Under the pieces are notes generated by a model. The model saw only the letters and a program-made list of their open reading frames with translations. It was not told the origin of the DNA and searched no databases. DNA of 64,000 nt from a virus (taxonomy: Duplodnaviria; Heunggongvirae; Uroviricota; Caudoviricetes; Straboviridae). The position numbers and the translations under genes were made by a program. How positions within the stretch are numbered: position 1 is the first letter of the stretch; every line of letters starts with the position of its first letter. The DNA lies in IMG/VR virus record IMGVR_UViG_638275431_000001, positions 19,196-83,195 of that record; one strand, written 5' to 3'. Below are positions 10,371 to 51,200 of the stretch, piece after piece.

Positions 10371-10647
10371 ATGAAATCTCCATTGTCATTGTGTCTACAT
10401 CAATATGCCAATCGAGTTGGCCAGTTTCTACTTCGAACGGCTGCCATGAAATGTTGGCAGGATTTAAAACTACAGGAATATTATAATCCAATAATTGAAG
10501 TTTTACGAAATACGCTAATAATTCTATTTCTCCGCATGTTGAATCAATGATGGGTAAAAGATTAATCTTCAGGGTCGTCTTCATAGAATGAATCCAAATT
10601 AGGAACATCCTCTTTATCTTTCTTTTTAGATTTAAGGGATGATTCAT
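10360..10647 (-). CDS. Hypothetical small protein; probably begins at an internal ATG near 10584 and overlaps the gene 55 3' end
   Basis: ORF only. Confidence 0.25.
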   Translation of the reverse strand: MNHPLNLKRKIKRMFLIWIHSMKTTLKINLLPIIDSTCGEIELLAYFVKLQLLDYNIPVVLNPANISWQPFEVETGQLDWHIDVDTMTMEISYVA

Positions 10648-11080
10648 AGGCTACTAGTTTGCCATGGATGTCTTGGATGAAATTCTCATCAACCAATCGT
10701 GACATATCATCATCATGTTCGTCATACACGTTTGTCAAAAAATAGCGATATTTGATTGCCATTTCGTGTTTTTCGTACTTGATGCGTCCAATAAAGGCAC
10801 GGTAACAAGCCTGTGTGATATAAGCATGAGGGTTTTTGTAATTATCTTCATCGAAATTTATCAAACCCTTTACAACAGCTTCGACTGCATCAGATATCAT
10901 TCCGTCTTTCCAATTTTGCGTATATCCAGCAAATTTGTAATATCCGGTAAAACCTTTGGCAATCTTCATAATGTCTATACCAATTGCATCTGGCATCTTG
11001 ATGTGATGTCCTGCATCACGCATATCTTGTTTCCATTTGCAAATATTCTGGTATAGAACTTCATTGTCAACATATTTCAT
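10562..11080 (-). CDS. 55: Late-transcription sigma factor gp55
   Basis: FTGYYKFAGYTQNWKDGMISDAVEA..KGLINFDEDNYKNPHAYITQACYRAF matches T4 gp55 closely. Confidence 0.9.
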   Translation of the reverse strand: MKYVDNEVLYQNICKWKQDMRDAGHHIKMPDAIGIDIMKIAKGFTGYYKFAGYTQNWKDGMISDAVEAVVKGLINFDEDNYKNPHAYITQACYRAFIGRIKYEKHEMAIKYRYFLTNVYDEHDDDMSRLVDENFIQDIHGKLVAYESSLKSKKKDKEDVPNLDSFYEDDPED

Positions 11081-11140
11081 AGGGCAATTCCTCCTATGAT
11101 TGATTATATCATACTAATAAGCTTGCTAAACTTATTTAAC

Positions 11141-11240
11141 TTTACTGCCTGCAGGTTTTGGCCCTGCCAAAACTTATCCTTTATGGCTTAATAGATATTA
11201 TAACTAAAAGGATAAAAAGATAAGTTCAAGCAAGCTTGAA
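11141..11240. repeat. Composite repeat, copy A: 14-bp inverted arms (aacttatcctttat / ataaaaagataagtt) around a 27-bp AT-rich core containing atattataa, followed by the palindrome TTCAAGCaaGCTTGAA. The second copy is at 51090..51200 with the core inverted
   Basis: Direct comparison of the two intergenic regions. The flanks are direct repeats; the core of B equals the reverse complement of the core of A over ~53 nt. Confidence 0.7.
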
Positions 11241-11365
11241 CCTGGAGCCAGGATTTCTATAATCAACCAGGTTTAAACAAGGTCATTAGACTAATAACCT
11301 ATCATCAAAAATTCCAGATAACCCCAGGGTGATCCCTGTGTTATCATGCGCATACAACAAAGGCC

Positions 11366-12805
11366 TCATGTAGAGGCCTTCTTTTTGGCTTTTTCACGTG
11401 TTTTGATTATCCAGTCCTGGACAATTTCCTGGTCTTCCGCAGAATTGATATCGAGTATTCGCCCAAGTTTTCTCAGCAGATACTTGTATTTGAACCTTTC
11501 TTTCTCGGTCATTTGGTATAGCGCTTGATACGACTCTCGATTTCTTTTTACCTGTTTGTGATTTTCGACTGAATTACCATCACATATCTCAGCGTGCGGC
11601 AAATATCTCAACATGTATTGAGCTAATTTCATATCAGGAACATACAGATTGATGGGTTTTAGCGAATGTTCATTTCGGATATCACATCTTGCGCAAAGTT
11701 GAAATGCGGGTTCAAGATACTTTGAAACTATGTACGCGTCAACCATTGCACTTTCATCTAAGCCTACCGACTTTGCGAGTTCTTTCAAAATCGGAACTTG
11801 CCAAGGTGCCGGATTATACGAAAACATCACAACCACATTAGTATAATCCGAATAGTTGTTTAGACCATGCGGGTTATAAGGAACTTCCGTCCCCTTTGGC
11901 ATTCTTGGCCGATAAGAGTTTCGAGTGTAAATGAAATCGCCATTTACGATTGTATCGAGAGTATTTTCGATGCGAGTGTAATTCGAAATCCCATCTACTT
12001 CCTTGTCGGCTTTGTAACGAGACCAATCATCATCAAACATTACATGAATTTTTACACGAGCAGTTTTAGGATAAACTCGGAAAGCCAACCGCCCAACTAG
12101 CGGAGACTCTTCAAATTCCCATCCGTTAAAATGCTTCATAATCATGCCAGTAAAAGTCTGCTCGAAATTTGCAGAACAGACAGTTATTGACTTGAATTTT
12201 GCCCAATCATCATTTGACGCATCATTCACGTAATAACATTGCGTCACACCTCCCTCTACCGACAGCCTGACAGGGACACCTGTCAGCAGTGCTTTATACA
12301 ATGGAAAAAGTGTTGAATAAATGTCATCGTTTCCTCTAAAGCCATCTATTGCCATTTTTTGGACCGATTTTCGATGTTCATCACGTAACTCTAGTAGTCC
12401 AGTTTCATCTATTTTGCACAATTCGAGTATATGGCTTTCAACTGATGTTGTGAAAGTAAATCGTTCGAAGCTTGTTAATTCTGGAACCTCATCGATATAA
12501 AGATAAAATCTTTTTACAGCATCAATATCTCGAAGGCCCATTAAAGCCGCGTGCGTTATAAAAATCACATCAAATTCTTCGGATGCTTTGATAACTGCTT
12601 CGTGTACCGACTTTTGGCCTTGGCGGTTATCGGTGTCAACTAACTCGCCTTCTCCGCCCAGGCCGACATAGTATTCGAAAGATTGTTTCGATAATTGTCT
12701 AGATATGCTGGCTATAATTGCCTTTTCATTATTTTCAACAATATGGTTTAGAATAGCTGCAGTTTTTCCTGCAGCTGGTATAGCGGAGAGAGTGTAAAGT
12801 TTCAC
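11366..12805 (-). CDS. P-loop NTPase of unknown family (479 aa); Walker A AIPAAGKT, Walker B LYIDEV
   Basis: Motifs seen; no confident family assignment. Its stop overlaps the start of the next ORF. Confidence 0.5.
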   Translation of the reverse strand: MKLYTLSAIPAAGKTAAILNHIVENNEKAIIASISRQLSKQSFEYYVGLGGEGELVDTDNRQGQKSVHEAVIKASEEFDVIFITHAALMGLRDIDAVKRFYLYIDEVPELTSFERFTFTTSVESHILELCKIDETGLLELRDEHRKSVQKMAIDGFRGNDDIYSTLFPLYKALLTGVPVRLSVEGGVTQCYYVNDASNDDWAKFKSITVCSANFEQTFTGMIMKHFNGWEFEESPLVGRLAFRVYPKTARVKIHVMFDDDWSRYKADKEVDGISNYTRIENTLDTIVNGDFIYTRNSYRPRMPKGTEVPYNPHGLNNYSDYTNVVVMFSYNPAPWQVPILKELAKSVGLDESAMVDAYIVSKYLEPAFQLCARCDIRNEHSLKPINLYVPDMKLAQYMLRYLPHAEICDGNSVENHKQVKRNRESYQALYQMTEKERFKYKYLLRKLGRILDINSAEDQEIVQDWIIKTREKAKKKAST

Positions 12806-13377
12806 AGATCCAAAAATTCCTTAAGCCGCTCAATGTCAAACTGATTGTAAAGATTATAACACTCCACACCATGACGCATTGCAAGCTGCCAAGCAGTATT
12901 TGTTCCTCCAGAAACTCCGTTATCCGTTGGAACCGAATAACACACCAAGAATTCTGAAGGTGTTTTCAGATTATAACCCAGAACTTGATACACATTTCGA
13001 GTATGAAGTGCAAGAGCACCACCAGTCAATTTACCTCCTTTGGCGTAAATTGGGTGGACCGTTTTCATGATTTGCTCGGCGTCCCATTTATTGGCGTCTG
13101 GTAAAATGAGGTCGTGACGAGTGTGTTTTGGTTTGAACCGGCCGTTAAACCGTGCCCATGGAACATAAACATCAAACTCTACCGGGCTGTCGATATCCAA
13201 ACTGTCGGCAACTGCTAGAAAACCTTCTTCAAAAGCAGTATCCGCACCATCAGCACCGCCTGAACGTCCGGTATATCCTCGAACAGCAGCAACAGCTGCA
13301 ATATCCTTCATCAAACGACAAATATGATCGGGAGTCTCACGACTCCCGATTCCAGTGTAATAACCCTTGAAATTCAT
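12802..13377 (-). CDS. DprA/Smf-like (SLOG superfamily) Rossmann-fold protein
   Basis: YTGIGSRETP...RGYTGRSGGADGADTAFEEGFLA resembles the DprA Rossmann signature G.GSR ... SG.A.G.D..AH. Confidence 0.45.
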   Translation of the reverse strand: MNFKGYYTGIGSRETPDHICRLMKDIAAVAAVRGYTGRSGGADGADTAFEEGFLAVADSLDIDSPVEFDVYVPWARFNGRFKPKHTRHDLILPDANKWDAEQIMKTVHPIYAKGGKLTGGALALHTRNVYQVLGYNLKTPSEFLVCYSVPTDNGVSGGTNTAWQLAMRHGVECYNLYNQFDIERLKEFLDL

Positions 13378-13444: not shown

Positions 13445-13699
13445 TTATACAACTCCAACAACATGTGCACCCGCCGGCACTTTAACGGTATTCAGAATGT
13501 AATGAGCATATCGGTGAACTTCATTGTACAATTCGGGGTCATAGCCGTCAGCATGGAAAATGATATCAGCACCAGAAGTAGTGCGTAAAATATGCATTTC
13601 GCAACCACCCGGAGAAACGCGGTCGATATTTTTCAAATCCATAATATAGCGATCAATCGGACCAGCGTGACGGCTTGAAACAATAATTTTGAATTCCAT
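13445..13699 (-). CDS. Hypothetical protein (84 aa; MEFKIIVSS...). The 169-aa ORF reported by the ORF finder is probably an over-extension
   Basis: RBS AGGAA 8 nt before the internal ATG; the long form overlaps the next gene by 190 nt. Confidence 0.35.
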   Translation of the reverse strand: MEFKIIVSSRHAGPIDRYIMDLKNIDRVSPGGCEMHILRTTSGADIIFHADGYDPELYNEVHRYAHYILNTVKVPAGAHVVGVV

Positions 13700-13763: not shown

Positions 13764-14102
13764 TTATCGCTTGCTGCCGTACATTTCTTGGCGGATTTTA
13801 CGAGCTTTTCCTTGATATTTCTTGTACGCGTCTTCGGCGACTTGCTTGTAACCTGCGTGTGTAGGAGTGTGGCCGAGCGGTTGAGTGCCGAATTCATCCG
13901 CGATATATTGCACGATAACGCTGCGAATCGCTCGGCGTCCAATTCCAGTAACACCCGCTTCCATCATAGCATCCCATACTGTGTTTTCAACTTTGTCGAT
14001 CATTTGTTCGGTGATTTCACGACCAAGAATATTATCAGTGGTGAATTCGGCGGCAGCGGTGTGTACGGCGAAGTTACGAACAGCAATGAATGCATTAGAC
14101 AT
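13764..14102 (-). CDS. Hypothetical protein (112 aa)
   Basis: ORF only. Confidence 0.35.
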   Translation of the reverse strand: MSNAFIAVRNFAVHTAAAEFTTDNILGREITEQMIDKVENTVWDAMMEAGVTGIGRRAIRSVIVQYIADEFGTQPLGHTPTHAGYKQVAEDAYKKYQGKARKIRQEMYGSKR

Positions 14103-14185: not shown

Positions 14186-14210
14186 TAAAAAAGGCCTCCG
14201 AAGAGGCCTA
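14186..14210 (-). terminator. Rho-independent terminator (aggcctccgaagaggcct plus U-run) after nrdC
   Basis: Hairpin and T-run seen in the sequence. Confidence 0.6.
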
Positions 14211-15342: not shown

Positions 15343-16248
15343 TTATTTACTGTGAATTTTCAGGAGATGCTGGTTTCGTTTGAACAATTCGTCGTATGAG
15401 TCACCTGCTCTGACTTGATCGGCGTAAATTTTCACAACGTCACAATAATTTTCCCATGCAAATTCACGGAACCAGCCAGATGTAATAGAAGTGCATACTT
15501 TCTCAAGGGCCATTTGAAAAGCTTTATAGGGTTGAACTTTTCCTGGGAAAGGAATAAGACAGCGTTCCAAAGCCAAAACACAAGATTCTTCATAGACACC
15601 CATCAACCGAATACGACGAGAGCAATTAAAGAATTTTTCTTTTGACGTCATTACTTCAGCACCATCAACCATGTATGATCGATATGCTGGAATACCATCA
15701 ACCGCCACTGCTTCGTGAATTGTGTCATGATCATAGGTGTAGATGTCGTCTTTAAAAAATGCGCCTTTGCCGACGTTAAGCTTCGGATGGCCATAATTCA
15801 GAGATTCTTGTTCACGCTTTTTGAAAATTTCCACGTGTTCAGGCCCCATGACTATACCGAATTCACGCAATTCGTGAATGTGCATCATGGTTTTGATGAA
15901 ATTGCGAGTGTTCTTTTTGAACCGATGAGCCATTTTCACGGCAAGAAGAATTTCAGGGGTGGCGTATACATCTTTACCAGGCACAACATCCATAAGTTTG
16001 TAAATCATCTCATCAGACGAGCCAGGCTGAACAATATATGCTTCGTGATAACAGCATCGAGATTTACCATCACCAACGACGAAAGCTCGAACATTCGGGC
16101 TTTTTACTGCAATAGTCCGGCCTTGCATTCTGGCTTGATATTCGTTCCATTCTTCTTCGTATGCAATGAAGTCATGGTCCATATTTACTGTAGGAGCAAC
16201 AAACGGAATTAGCCTAGCTTGAAAAGCACGAGAGCCAACAATAATCAT
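15343..16248 (-). CDS. Hypothetical protein (301 aa)
   Basis: ORF only; no radical-SAM CxxxCxxC motif, so it is not NrdG. Confidence 0.4.
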   Translation of the reverse strand: MIIVGSRAFQARLIPFVAPTVNMDHDFIAYEEEWNEYQARMQGRTIAVKSPNVRAFVVGDGKSRCCYHEAYIVQPGSSDEMIYKLMDVVPGKDVYATPEILLAVKMAHRFKKNTRNFIKTMMHIHELREFGIVMGPEHVEIFKKREQESLNYGHPKLNVGKGAFFKDDIYTYDHDTIHEAVAVDGIPAYRSYMVDGAEVMTSKEKFFNCSRRIRLMGVYEESCVLALERCLIPFPGKVQPYKAFQMALEKVCTSITSGWFREFAWENYCDVVKIYADQVRAGDSYDELFKRNQHLLKIHSK

Positions 16249-20326: not shown

Positions 20327-21808
20327 TTACTTAATTGCAGTGCGCTGGCGGATTTCAGCCAGATTGCTCTTGAATTTTTGACCTTTTTCAGCGTCATAAT
20401 AACGGACGAATGCATCTTTCGACATAAGTTCAACAAAACCGTCTTTGATGCTTACACCGGACAGCATTTGCCCACCTTCAATAGTTCCTTCGGTATAATA
20501 GCGGCCGTCATCCATGACTCGCAGTTTGAGCTGGCCTTTCTTGGAAGCTTTCCATTCAGCCCCTTTCGGGCATTTGAATACGTCTTTCCATACACCATTG
20601 ATTTTGATAGCAGACATTTTCATGGCCCACTTGCAAGTGTCGCGGTTAACCATTTGCAGAAGACCGCCACCCATGCCGAACGCAATATTCTCTGCAGCCC
20701 CAACCCACGAGCTTTTCATAACAGTCAGAACACGGCCGATAACTTCGGGACCGTCGATGCCATCACCTTGAATAATGCGGCAATGCTTATTCAGAACCTT
20801 GTAGCCCTTGCTGTTGGTTTCATAACCGAAGATTTCACCCAGAGTTTCCAGAGCAAAACTGATATTGTCGATCATATCACCACTGTCAGGTCGAGCGATC
20901 AGAGTACCACCCTTGGTGATGACTTCGTCCTTATAGCTCTCGATTTCACGGATTGCCTTCTTGAAATCAGTAGAGTCATCCACAATGGAATATGCACCAA
21001 CACCAAAGAGTTTAACCGAGTTGAGGTAGGCGTCTTTTTCACGATCGGCACCCCAAGAGGTTACAGTGGAGTGCTCGCGGGCTGGTACAGAGATGCCTGC
21101 CATTTCGGCGCCAAACAGTTGTTTTGCGAAATACAGCGACTCGAAAGTGTCAGTACCCATAGAGTTGTACAGATGAGCACAACCGCCGATTGCAGCAGAT
21201 TCACCAGAACTAACGCCGCGAGAACCAAAATCATGTAGTCGGGTCATCAGCACAAAGTGGAACTCAGGACTGCCTACTTCCAGGTCAGAAGTTTCAATCA
21301 GATGGTGACGAATAGATTTGATGCATTCGCGGCTCAGCGTGGCAACAGTAGAAGTGTACCAAACAGCTCGCAAAATGATTGGCTCAAACCAGCCTGCCAA
21401 CCAAACGAACGGTGCTTTAACGCGAGCAGTCAGCACGACGTTCTTGACTGGGACAACAGTGCCTTCGGGAACAGCATCAATTTGGATGGGCAGACAGCCA
21501 TGCTGTTCTTGATATTGGCGGACTGCTTCCCAACCTTCGCGGTTGAATACGTCTTGGCCGAAGTGAGCCTTGCTCATGGCATCCATTTCGTCAATATCAT
21601 CTTTGGTGATGATTTCTGCAAACTTGGTCAGCAGATATTCCACACCACCGATAACGATTTCATCGAATTTGCCGCCACGGGCTTCGATGTAGAAAACTGC
21701 TTCTTCGGTACCTTCAGGCATCTGGTTCCAATGGGTGATTTTGTAAGAATCAGTCATTGCGATCAGCGGGATACCTTTCACACCTGTAGGTTGACGAATC
21801 ATATTCAT
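20327..21808 (-). CDS. nadV: Nicotinamide phosphoribosyltransferase (NAMPT, NadV)
   Basis: 493 aa, type II PRTase/NAMPT family (GGGLLQ..., DSGD motifs), as in Vibrio phage KVP40 NadV. Confidence 0.85.
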   Translation of the reverse strand: MNMIRQPTGVKGIPLIAMTDSYKITHWNQMPEGTEEAVFYIEARGGKFDEIVIGGVEYLLTKFAEIITKDDIDEMDAMSKAHFGQDVFNREGWEAVRQYQEQHGCLPIQIDAVPEGTVVPVKNVVLTARVKAPFVWLAGWFEPIILRAVWYTSTVATLSRECIKSIRHHLIETSDLEVGSPEFHFVLMTRLHDFGSRGVSSGESAAIGGCAHLYNSMGTDTFESLYFAKQLFGAEMAGISVPAREHSTVTSWGADREKDAYLNSVKLFGVGAYSIVDDSTDFKKAIREIESYKDEVITKGGTLIARPDSGDMIDNISFALETLGEIFGYETNSKGYKVLNKHCRIIQGDGIDGPEVIGRVLTVMKSSWVGAAENIAFGMGGGLLQMVNRDTCKWAMKMSAIKINGVWKDVFKCPKGAEWKASKKGQLKLRVMDDGRYYTEGTIEGGQMLSGVSIKDGFVELMSKDAFVRYYDAEKGQKFKSNLAEIRQRTAIK

Positions 21809-34163: not shown

Positions 34164-34364
34164 TTACTCCACTATAACAGTTTGACCGATAAACAGCTGG
34201 CCATTGTGCTTAATTTCATAGTTGACTTTAACACAATCACCAACTTCGCGATATGAGTGGATAATAACGCCGTCCAGGTCAGGACCAAAAAGATGAATGA
34301 AAGCAGCTTCAAACACTTTTTGCATAACCGGGCCGCACTGTTGCCATTTACCTTTAACTTCCAT
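34164..34364 (-). CDS. Hypothetical protein (66 aa)
   Basis: ORF only. Confidence 0.3.
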   Translation of the reverse strand: MEVKGKWQQCGPVMQKVFEAAFIHLFGPDLDGVIIHSYREVGDCVKVNYEIKHNGQLFIGQTVIVE

Positions 34365-34839
34365 CGAATTCTACCACCGTGATATCGATATTTGGGGTAA
34401 CTTCATTGATGATTGCTTCAATTTTGTCCCAATCGCCTCGGGCAAGACCGGCACCTATTTTAGGAATACACATAGTTGGGCGTAAACCAAAATCAACAGT
34501 CTCTTGACACAGTGTATTAACTTCCGCAAAACAAGCTCTAACGGCGTCGTAAGAAAGCATATCGGCAGGATCCCAAAATGTTGCTTGGGTATACATATTG
34601 AAGGCGACCCCATGCTGATCACCGCAGGCGATTGGAGAACCACTGATTGTACCCAACTTTTTACGGTCACCTTCAGTGGTCAATTGATCAAGCTGCCACA
34701 ACTCAGGAAGGCGATTCCGGACTTCTTTTGCAATTCCAGAACCCATTCGGTTAAAAATGTTACAACCGTGAGCAAACATTTGATATTTGCCGGACAAGAA
34801 AAGGCTAATTGCGTTGCCGTGTACATATTCAACAATCAT
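34354..34839 (-). CDS. Macro-domain protein (ADP-ribose binding/processing)
   Basis: FAHGCNIFNRMGSGIAKEV resembles the macro motif VNAAN..L..GGGV..AI; 161 aa. Confidence 0.5.
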   Translation of the reverse strand: MIVEYVHGNAISLFLSGKYQMFAHGCNIFNRMGSGIAKEVRNRLPELWQLDQLTTEGDRKKLGTISGSPIACGDQHGVAFNMYTQATFWDPADMLSYDAVRACFAEVNTLCQETVDFGLRPTMCIPKIGAGLARGDWDKIEAIINEVTPNIDITVVEFDGS

Positions 34840-51089: not shown

Positions 51090-51200
51090 TTACAGGGTTT
51101 GAGCTTGCTCAAAACTTATCTTTTTATCCTTTTAGTTATAATATCTATTAAGCCATAAAGGATAAAAATGAATGATTCAAGCAAGCCTTGAATCCTGGCA
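51090..51200. repeat. Composite repeat, copy B (see 11141..11240): same flanks, core inverted
   Basis: Direct comparison. Confidence 0.7.

Follow-up and report, generated by a model that had tools for sequence, protein, structure and literature searches.

Every characterised member of the DprA/ShosA clade of SLOG proteins binds ssDNA and RecA, and ShosA is the DprA-like antitoxin that accompanies the toxin ShosT in ShosTA (PsyrTA), an abortive-infection system. A role as ssDNA binders has been proposed for jumbo-phage DprA/SLOG proteins (Iyer et al. 2021, PMC7824862). Viral SLOG domains, chiefly YpsA-like ones and not those of the DprA clade, have been predicted to sense or degrade ADP-ribose (ADPr)-derived immune signals (Iyer et al. 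2022, PMC9503650), and the idea of a phage SLOG protein directed against ADP-ribose-based immunity is thus already in the literature as a prediction. NARP1-AP (Adps-Namat-Macro) is a published operon for NAD+ reconstitution. NARP1 loci contain embedded Macro/Adpp (a phosphatase) and RyDEP (a glycosidase), which convert ADPr derivatives to ADPR, and Table S1 of the Osterman et al. 2026 preprint lists the PAK_P operons under NARP1, with Macro present. A preliminary description of the locus considered here suggested that a small phage SLOG protein might act as a decoy for ADPR-derived signals or as a recombination mediator, and held that neither role had been described for T4-like phages; given the two Iyer et al. 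papers and the DprA-like label that the protein carries in RefSeq, this was overstated.

The window, a 64,000-nucleotide stretch of DNA, corresponds to Aeromonas phage 25 (NC_008208, 100% identity). On its minus strand, PHG25ORF050c (12802..13377) encodes a 191-aa stand-alone SLOG (Rossmannoid) protein of the DprA clade that belongs to phrog_768 (E = 6e-66), and PHG25ORF049c (11366..12805) encodes a 479-aa SF2 helicase-like ATPase with a predicted XPD/DinG-like topology and no Fe-S cluster, which belongs to phrog_2467 (E = 1e-198), the family that also holds SPβ YonV. The motifs GIGSRETP and RSGGADGADTAFEEG occupy residues 9-16 and 38-52 of the smaller protein, and AIPAAGKT and LYIDEV residues 8-15 and 102-107 of the larger one. 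Neither ORF is a chance occurrence, since the proteins have 589 and 107 homologs, respectively, in a large protein database, match their PHROG families strongly and give high-confidence fold predictions. Both ORFs, their sizes, these motifs and a 4-nt overlap between the genes (GTGA, 12802..12805, minus strand) are genuine, as first described. The order had been reversed, with the NTPase said to end inside the start of the 191-aa ORF; it is the 191-aa ORF that lies upstream, and its TGA stop falls in the GTG start of the helicase ORF.

The flanking genes lie on the same strand. Gene 55, encoding the late sigma factor (10562..11080), is the conserved downstream neighbour of the helicase; the earlier placement of the pair next to gene 55 therefore holds for the helicase and not for the SLOG gene. 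Upstream is gp55.2 (DUF7570; 13764..14102; Pfam PF24454, E = 1e-26), the gene that in other T4-like phages usually sits directly before the helicase. Between gp55.2 and the SLOG gene, and in the phage 25/44RR clade only, an 84-aa ORF with no assigned function, PHG25ORF051c (13445..13699; phrog_10266, E = 4e-53), has been inserted; it has no counterpart in two related loci, L110 and L111, where DUF7570 abuts the SLOG gene. A terminator-like hairpin followed by a T-run (AGGTTCAAGCTTGCTTGAACTT then ATCTTTTTAT; 11222..11243, minus strand) is found 3′ of the helicase stop and 5′ of gene 55, and probably ends a transcription unit composed of 55.2, ORF051c, SLOG and helicase. A second terminator-like hairpin (AGGCCTCTTCGGAGGCCT then TTTTTATAAA; 14192..14209, minus strand), between nrdH and gp55.2, is the probable upstream boundary of that unit. 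A scan for sigma-70 promoters returned 13 sites, which is not above expectation (9.3 ± 3.2 in shuffled sequence).

Members of phrog_768 are encoded by about 1,000 sequenced phages (~2%), among them the therapeutic Pseudomonas phages PAK_P1 to PAK_P4. The 191-aa protein is predicted to adopt a three-layer alpha/beta Rossmannoid fold like that of solved SLOG members, and its Gly-rich and polar pocket loops are conserved: G11-S12-R13, S39-G40, D46 and G157-G158-T159 are invariant among 67 SLOG sequences, which upholds the initial assignment to a SLOG/DprA-type Rossmann fold. The full conserved pocket set consists of GSRETP, RSGGAxGAD, H108, H125-x-R127-N128-x-x-Q131, GGTxT and N175, and within it the invariant polar residues R38, H108, H125, Q131 and N175 are absent from DprA. 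Residues that contact DNA in HpDprA are partly retained. R13 aligns with HpDprA R52 and R127/N128 with R143/N144, all invariant in the 67 sequences, and the position of R170 is V, W, I or Y in the SLOG family and never basic. The protein is a single domain, with neither a SAM domain nor a C-terminal winged-helix (DML1-like) domain.

Database searches placed the protein near DprA, below the usual thresholds. The Pfam model DNA_processg_A (PF02481) scored 11.8 bits against a gathering cutoff of 29.6 for the phage 25 protein; weak matches to it were found in 63 of 67 members (best E = 2.6e-6), all of them under threshold. A PADLOC search gave a weak match to PsyrA/ShosA (E = 0.01) that covers the N-terminal motifs only. 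PDB sequence searches with both proteins and with the family profiles returned nothing significant, the sole marginal hit being an N-terminal DprA match, and an NCBIfam search gave zero matches. The LOG signature PGGxGTxxE was not found in the SLOG family, in which the corresponding loop is GGTxTA and lacks a conserved acidic residue. The list of the 25 Pfam families that the 67 members matched most often reaches down to a family with one matching member and does not include LOG, and among the matches listed no member matched the YpsA or LOG models. Net charge and pI were dropped as discriminators of ssDNA binding, as true DprA domains range from net -4 to +5.

Genes of NAD+ and ADP-ribose metabolism recur around the SLOG genes. 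Within 5 kb, Macro genes were found in 10 of 46 SLOG lineages, Prs/Adps-like genes in 6 and Nampt/Namat-like genes in 6; one or another of these is present in 13 lineages, and 33 have no NAD/ADPr neighbour. Macro, Adps-like and Namat/Nampt-like genes are nevertheless the commonest recurring neighbours. The gene order is Adps-Namat-Macro-x-x-SLOG in PAK_P2, SLOG-Adps-Namat in the T4-like locus L053 and Adps-Namat-x-SLOG in L044/L045, and homologs in these, in L075 and in others lie in or beside an Adps-Namat(-Macro) operon. The Prs-like/Nampt-like neighbour pair of the PAK_P phages is the published NARP1 (Adps/Namat) and not Prs/Nampt. Because loci with tight Macro/NARP1 adjacency come mainly from related Pseudomonas myoviruses, the number of independent NAD/ADPr events is perhaps 4-6. 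Phage 25 itself has no Adps-like gene in the window, and its SLOG gene is not located in a NARP1 or NARP1-AP operon; a NAMPT-type NadV lies ~7 kb and a Macro-like gene ~21 kb from it, all in one early region. The ADPR-related suggestion made at the outset thus gains from the NARP1-AP or other Macro/Nampt genes beside homologs in 13 of 46 lineages, and finds no adjacent gene of this kind in phage 25.

We favour a NAD+/ADP-ribose counter-defence role for the SLOG protein, to which we assign a probability of roughly 40%. Its single strongly conserved pocket would bind, and might also process, a ligand that contains phosphoribose and derives from NAD+ or ADP-ribose. The protein would be an accessory factor in counter-defence or NAD+ economy, like those that cluster with NARP1-AP (Adps-Namat-Macro), rather than a partner of the helicase or a core recombination mediator. 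Ligand sequestration and hydrolysis may both be accommodated. This role is preferred because Macro, Adps and Namat neighbours recur in 13 of 46 lineages in differing gene orders, because the invariant polar set has no DprA counterpart and the third DNA-contact arginine is always replaced by a hydrophobic residue, because the early region of phage 25 also contains NadV and a Macro-like gene, and because roles of this kind were predicted for viral SLOG domains by Iyer et al. 2022 (PMC9503650). Counting against it, the structure of the family and the order of its motifs place it nearest to DprA and ShosA, R13 and R127 (two of the three arginines that contact DNA) are invariant, and the SLOG gene of phage 25 is not adjacent to NAD genes, as is the case for the 33 lineages without such a neighbour. 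LOG-type N-glycosidase chemistry is unsupported, since the PGGxGTxxE signature is absent; a LOG-like phosphoribohydrolase supplying ribose-5-phosphate to Prs/Nampt was rejected for want of the LOG catalytic motif and because the PAK_P neighbour pair is Adps/Namat. A more specific proposal, which we put forward tentatively and consider rather unlikely as it stands, is that phrog_768 is an accessory of phage NAD+ reconstitution that binds or cleaves a molecule which host immunity derives from ADPR, for example a cADPR isomer or a different modified ADPR. If so, the protein would silence an immune signal or, like Adpp and RyDEP, supply NARP1 with ADPR, and the DprA branch of the SLOG fold would not be limited to ssDNA binding. 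No experiments on the phrog_768 family were found in the literature.

The close rival to the counter-defence role, possible though somewhat doubtful, is that the Rossmann domain acts as DprA does. It would use the GSR and RN arginines to bind ssDNA and would modulate a recombinase, either RecA of the host or UvsX of the phage, so as to serve as an additional recombination mediator or to protect ssDNA while the phage replicates. Its motifs are collinear with those of DprA, the counterparts of HpDprA R52 and R143/N144 never vary, and 63 of 67 members show the weak Pfam resemblance described above. Moreover, ShosA, itself a divergent DprA-like protein, uses these residues to bind ssDNA and RecA, the jumbo-phage proposal is of the same kind, and in phage 25 the gene sits amid replication and recombination genes (46/47, 49, nrd and a helicase). 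Against these points stand the failure of every member to reach the Pfam DprA threshold, the missing SAM and C-terminal winged-helix domains, the third contact position that is never basic, and a family-specific invariant His/His/Gln/Asn set without DprA counterpart. The gene is also a sporadic, lineage-specific insertion whose recurrent neighbours are NAD/ADPr genes, not recombinases. T4-like phages already possess UvsY and gp32, which also counts against an additional mediator.

The larger protein, whose family was initially given as unclear, retains the P-loop motifs then noted and can now be assigned to an SF2 helicase/translocase fold of XPD/DinG-like topology without an Fe-S domain. In the model, two RecA-like lobes carry SF2 motifs I, II and VI, and the segment inserted between motifs II and III may be Arch-like; the ~90 residues that separate Walker A from Walker B contain no inserted domain. 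No 4Fe-4S cluster domain with four conserved Cys was found in the family, in which C130 and C371 are the only invariant cysteines. A viral-library search matched only unnamed or generic helicase proteins. In T4-like phages, the phrog_2467 helicase occupies a slot between gp55.2 (DUF7570) and gp55 in 241 phage records, and among 28 loci examined for neighbours DUF7570 lies immediately upstream of the helicase homolog in 16 and a gp55 homolog downstream in 20.

It is possible in principle that the two proteins form a module in which SLOG, as a ligand or ssDNA sensor or loader, controls the helicase, as the sporadic SLOG-helicase fusions of phages might suggest. The overlap and the co-transcription are genuine, and adjacency with the same overlap is kept down to ~50% SLOG and ~61% helicase identity in L110 and L111. 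A divergent phrog_2467 member (neighbour cluster c182) also lies 1-3 genes downstream of SLOG in the non-T4 contigs L042 and L048, and SLOG fusions to SF1 helicases and nucleases are sporadically reported by Iyer et al. 2022 (PMC9503650). The adjacency is rare, however. A tblastn-based test is blind to divergent helicases and was repeated with HMMs in both directions and on 69 further loci. The SLOG gene was found within 5 kb of the helicase in 3 of 28 T4-like helicase loci (tblastn; HMM) and in 1 of 69 loci of the divergent branch (HMM), giving 4 of 97 overall; conversely, a phrog_2467 helicase lies within 5 kb of SLOG in 3 of 46 SLOG lineages. Close relatives of the L042 helicase (L117-L119) have no SLOG gene nearby. 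Several genomes that carry both genes have them 40-120 kb apart: the separation is ~94-123 kb in vB_Eco_TB34 and in Aeromonas phages Ah1 and Ahp1_CNU-2021, and ~43 kb between SLOG and a divergent-branch helicase homolog in Aeromonas phage 4L372XY. As adjacency stays rare in the HMM re-test, a functional module is still rejected, less decisively than after tblastn, and we consider it improbable.

Synteny indicates how the pairing arose. DUF7570 is the usual upstream partner of the helicase, and in L110 and L111 it immediately precedes the SLOG-helicase pair; the gene orders point to DUF7570-helicase-gp55 as ancestral, with SLOG inserted in phage 25/44RR and L110/L111. The SLOG gene entered the helicase slot once, in one Aeromonas-phage sub-lineage, and adjacency is confined to this T4-like sub-lineage and two other contigs. 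The overlap is not specific to the pair, because in other phages the start of the helicase ORF overlaps the stop of whatever gene precedes it: with DUF7570 the overlap is 4 nt in 6 loci and 1 nt in 4 loci, and with another family it is 4 nt in 2 loci. The translational coupling proposed at first is thus real as an overlap and is a property of the helicase start; the functional SLOG-NTPase pair built upon it is not borne out. The absence of linkage, like the synteny, the families and the folds as modelled, is an established result, and the two genes would best be regarded as independent accessory genes whose co-transcription and coupling reflect genome compaction only.

Least probable of all, and a purely inferential reading, is a mimic of ShosA that would bind ssDNA and host RecA and replace the antitoxin under host expression shut-off, leaving ShosT harmless: such a surrogate is conceivable because ShosA acts without touching ShosT, the counterparts of its essential R139 and R234 are invariant, the gene lies in accessory, anti-defence-rich regions and PADLOC finds the weak N-terminal resemblance, but the protein resembles ShosA no more closely than it does ordinary DprA, and it lacks both the SAM domain of ShosA and the C-terminal helix on which stability and dimerisation depend.

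If the SLOG family acts on ADP-ribose-derived molecules, it would be a widespread new component in the phage-bacteria arms race over NAD+, and the database label "DNA recombination-mediator", propagated without evidence, would be corrected. If it instead binds ssDNA or RecA, it would represent a minimal DprA domain for manipulating recombination or RecA-dependent defences such as ShosTA. The slot beside gene 55 in the 241 T4-like records can be annotated now as a previously unannotated SF2 helicase related to SPβ YonV. As a two-gene system, the pair is ordinary, its coupling mirroring genome compaction and not function.

Compared with known systems, the helicase-like protein differs from XPD/Rad3/DinG SF2 helicases, including CasDinG of type IV CRISPR systems, in lacking the 4-Cys Fe-S domain, in having DEVP instead of DEAH as motif II and in being much shorter at 479 aa, and the phage 25 protein matches no PDB or Pfam helicase at the sequence level. 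The SLOG protein differs from DprA/Smf (PF02481) and ShosA/PsyrA in its length of just 191 aa, in its sub-threshold Pfam score and in the absence of SAM and C-terminal DNA-binding domains; a hydrophobic residue replaces the third contact arginine, R38, H108, H125, Q131 and N175 are extra invariant residues, and the gene is stand-alone and sporadic, with NAD/ADPr neighbours in place of competence or recombination genes. In contrast to the viral SLOG domains of Iyer et al. [quoted passage not shown] SLOG has not been reported as a part of NARP1 and in phage 25 is not adjacent to NAD genes, unlike the accessories of NARP1-AP; like Adpp and RyDEP of that system, it is found a few genes or less away from Adps-Namat(-Macro) in Pakpunavirus/Otagovirus-like phages and in several further lineages.

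The window comes from Aeromonas phage 25 (100% identity to NC_008208 across 2.7 kb). The 191-aa SLOG protein is encoded by PHG25ORF050c (12802..13377, minus strand) and the 479-aa helicase-like ATPase by PHG25ORF049c (11366..12805, minus strand), and 4 nt (GTGA when read along the coding strand) are shared by both ORFs, the SLOG stop lying within the GTG start of the helicase gene. The preliminary description had the span, the quoted motifs and this overlap right, but reversed the order: the SLOG gene is the upstream member, and the helicase gene, downstream of it, is the neighbor of gene 55. Two terminator-like hairpins, 14209..14192 and 11243..11222 (both minus strand), bracket the genes for gp55.2, ORF051c, SLOG and helicase, suggesting that these are transcribed as a single unit. 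Just past the latter hairpin and upstream of gene 55, AAGCTTATTAGTATGATATAAT (about 11089..11110, minus strand) resembles, by eye only, a T4 middle promoter with a MotA-box-like element and a -10 TATAAT. This arrangement suggests that gene 55 is transcribed apart from the helicase gene.

The helicase/gene-55 intergenic region also contains one copy (11174..11226, abutting the hairpin) of a 53-bp exact inverted repeat whose other copy lies about 40 kb away (51113..51165). In phage-25-like records the 2.7-kb query matches about 6 places per genome, and intergenic 'repeatA' elements are annotated in the 44RR and 31 records. A 301-aa ORF with DUF7277 (E 1e-19) and DUF7275 (E 3e-70) matches (15343..16248, minus strand) is conserved among phage-25-like phages.

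Both proteins belong to kinds already known. The SLOG protein matches phrog_768, "DprA-like DNA recombination-mediator protein" (E 6e-66), a name that RefSeq already uses for it, and its family spans 1,023 phage records, far more than the T4-type helicase (241 records, all T4-like). Among 67 family members, Pfam DprA is matched weakly by 63, LDcluster4 by 14 and YAcAr by 2; LOG and YpsA are absent from the 25 most-matched Pfam families listed. The AlphaFold model, with the 67-sequence alignment as input, is very confident (pLDDT 96.4). When the family was compared by hhalign with a five-sequence DprA/ShosA alignment rebuilt from E. coli smf and PDB alignments, motifs were collinear (P 8e-5). 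For the phage 25 protein itself, Pfam gives only a sub-threshold DprA score (11.8 bits vs. a cutoff of 29.6). Invariant polar residues particular to the family are R38, H108, H125, Q131 and N175. LOG-type glycosidase chemistry is not supported, as the catalytic motif is absent.

Clustering of genes around 80 SLOG loci, counted as 46 lineages, identified Macro domain (10/46), Prs-like (6/46) and Nampt-like (6/46) genes as the most recurrent neighbors, with at least one of the three nearby in 13 lineages. Arrangements vary from lineage to lineage: Adps-Namat-Macro-x-x-SLOG in PAK_P2, SLOG-Adps-Namat at a T4-like locus (L053), and Adps-Namat-x-SLOG at L044/L045. In a 2026 preprint, Osterman et al. 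list the PAK_P operons as NARP1 accompanied by the Macro phosphatase Adpp and mention no SLOG or DprA gene. Within NARP1 loci, Adpp (same preprint) and RyDEP are other genes whose products convert ADPR derivatives to ADPR. In the T4-like Pantoea phage Phynn, the SLOG homolog follows RNA ligase, with ADP-ribosyltransferase and NAMPT genes nearby. Phage 25 itself carries NAD/ADPr-handling genes, NadV (20327..21808) and a 161-aa Macro-like ORF (34354..34839, minus strand), neither adjacent to the SLOG gene; no Adps-like gene was found in the window. The Macro-like ORF is about 31% identical to Macro (Adpp-like) proteins beside NARP1 operons of other phages.

The Phynn homolog (L113, MN038175 23783..24364) is labelled 'RNA ligase' and its start overlaps the end of the adjacent true RNA ligase gene; the label looks like a mis-annotation, apparently carried over from that gene. 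Enterobacter phages EC-W1 and Entb_46 likewise have SLOG next to RNA ligase 2. At eight SLOG loci in phages of about 83–90 kb (L038-L043, L047, L049), a variable hotspot 1–2 genes downstream of SLOG holds, in related phages, an HNH-type endonuclease-like ORF (neighbor cluster c181), another variable ORF (c57) or a divergent helicase (c182).

We favor, with a probability of roughly 0.4, an accessory NAD+/ADPr-linked counter-defence role, in which the SLOG protein would bind or process a ligand. Viral SLOG domains, mainly of the YpsA-like clade, have been predicted to sense or degrade ADPr-derived signals, and Macro/NADAR neighborhoods noted (Iyer et al. 2022, PMC9503650). The recurrence of DprA-clade SLOG genes beside NARP1-AP operons is apparently unreported and makes a concrete biochemical test worthwhile. 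A close rival, possible but less probable, is a DprA-like binder of ssDNA or RecA; phage DprA/SLOG proteins have been read as extra ssDNA binders (Iyer et al. 2021, PMC7824862). The arginines reported to contact ssDNA in DprA and ShosA correspond to HpDprA R52, R143 and R170 (PMC12961424). R13 aligns with R52, R127/N128 with R143/N144, and position 163, a variable hydrophobic residue, with R170; since R13 and R127 are invariant and position 163 is never basic, two of the three contact positions are kept. The annotation and both proposed roles are already in databases and the computational literature, and the statement that neither role had been described for T4-like phages overstates the novelty; experimental work on phrog_768 was not found in the literature.

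A genuine SLOG-helicase module, for which the gene overlap would speak, is improbable, and the two are not a functional pair: adjacency is rare in both directions, and the helicase gene makes the overlap with other upstream genes as well. Among 28 viral-contig loci of the T4-type helicase gene, a gp55 homolog lies downstream of it in 20, and DUF7570, the family of phage 25 gp55.2, immediately upstream in 16. A SLOG gene adjoins it at only 3 of the 28, by tblastn and by HMM, the latter reaching divergent helicases. Two further divergent metagenomic T4-like contigs have the order DUF7570-SLOG-helicase. This distribution points to one insertion into the 55.2/55 slot in one sub-lineage, a history apparently unreported. 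Conversely, any phrog_2467 (helicase family) member lies ≤5 kb from SLOG in only 3/46 SLOG lineages, and a SLOG gene lies ≤6 kb from a divergent-branch helicase at only 1/69 loci. The genes are about 94–123 kb apart in vB_Eco_TB34, Ah1 and Ahp1_CNU-2021, and a divergent-branch homolog in 4L372XY is about 43 kb from SLOG. A 4-nt or 1-nt overlap joins the helicase to any upstream gene, and the supposed translational coupling of the pair arises as a side effect of genome compaction. In most T4-like phages the DUF7570 stop overlaps the helicase start (4 nt in 6 loci, 1 nt in 4; gp55.2 at 13764..14102, minus strand). As the usual upstream gene, DUF7570 is a more plausible functional partner for the helicase than SLOG. 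Least probable of all is that the SLOG protein mimics ShosA.

The NTPase, whose family had been left unclear, is now placed in phrog_2467 (E 1e-198; annotated unknown function), with an SF2-like helicase fold assignment that is apparently unreported for this YonV-like family. It had no match by sequence in Pfam, NCBIfam or PDB; Pfam DEAD is matched by 22 of 64 homologs, and its neighbors in a viral structure library are unnamed phage proteins. Its invariant elements include Walker A at G13-K14-T15, Walker B at D105-E106, a SAN/TxTG segment resembling motif III and the motif VI-like residues Q369, R373 and R377, and the protein is therefore predicted to be an active ATPase. The family extends past T4-like phages in a divergent branch (L116-L184), all annotated hypothetical, from SPβ (yonV, NC_001884 67250..68467), phi3T, and Acinetobacter, Pseudoalteromonas, Staphylococcus and Fusobacterium phages. 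Overall, phrog_2467 is a broad family of phage SF2-like ATPases. Compared with XPD, the phage 25 helicase is without the four-cysteine Fe-S module and has an insertion of about 90–100 residues at the Arch-domain site.
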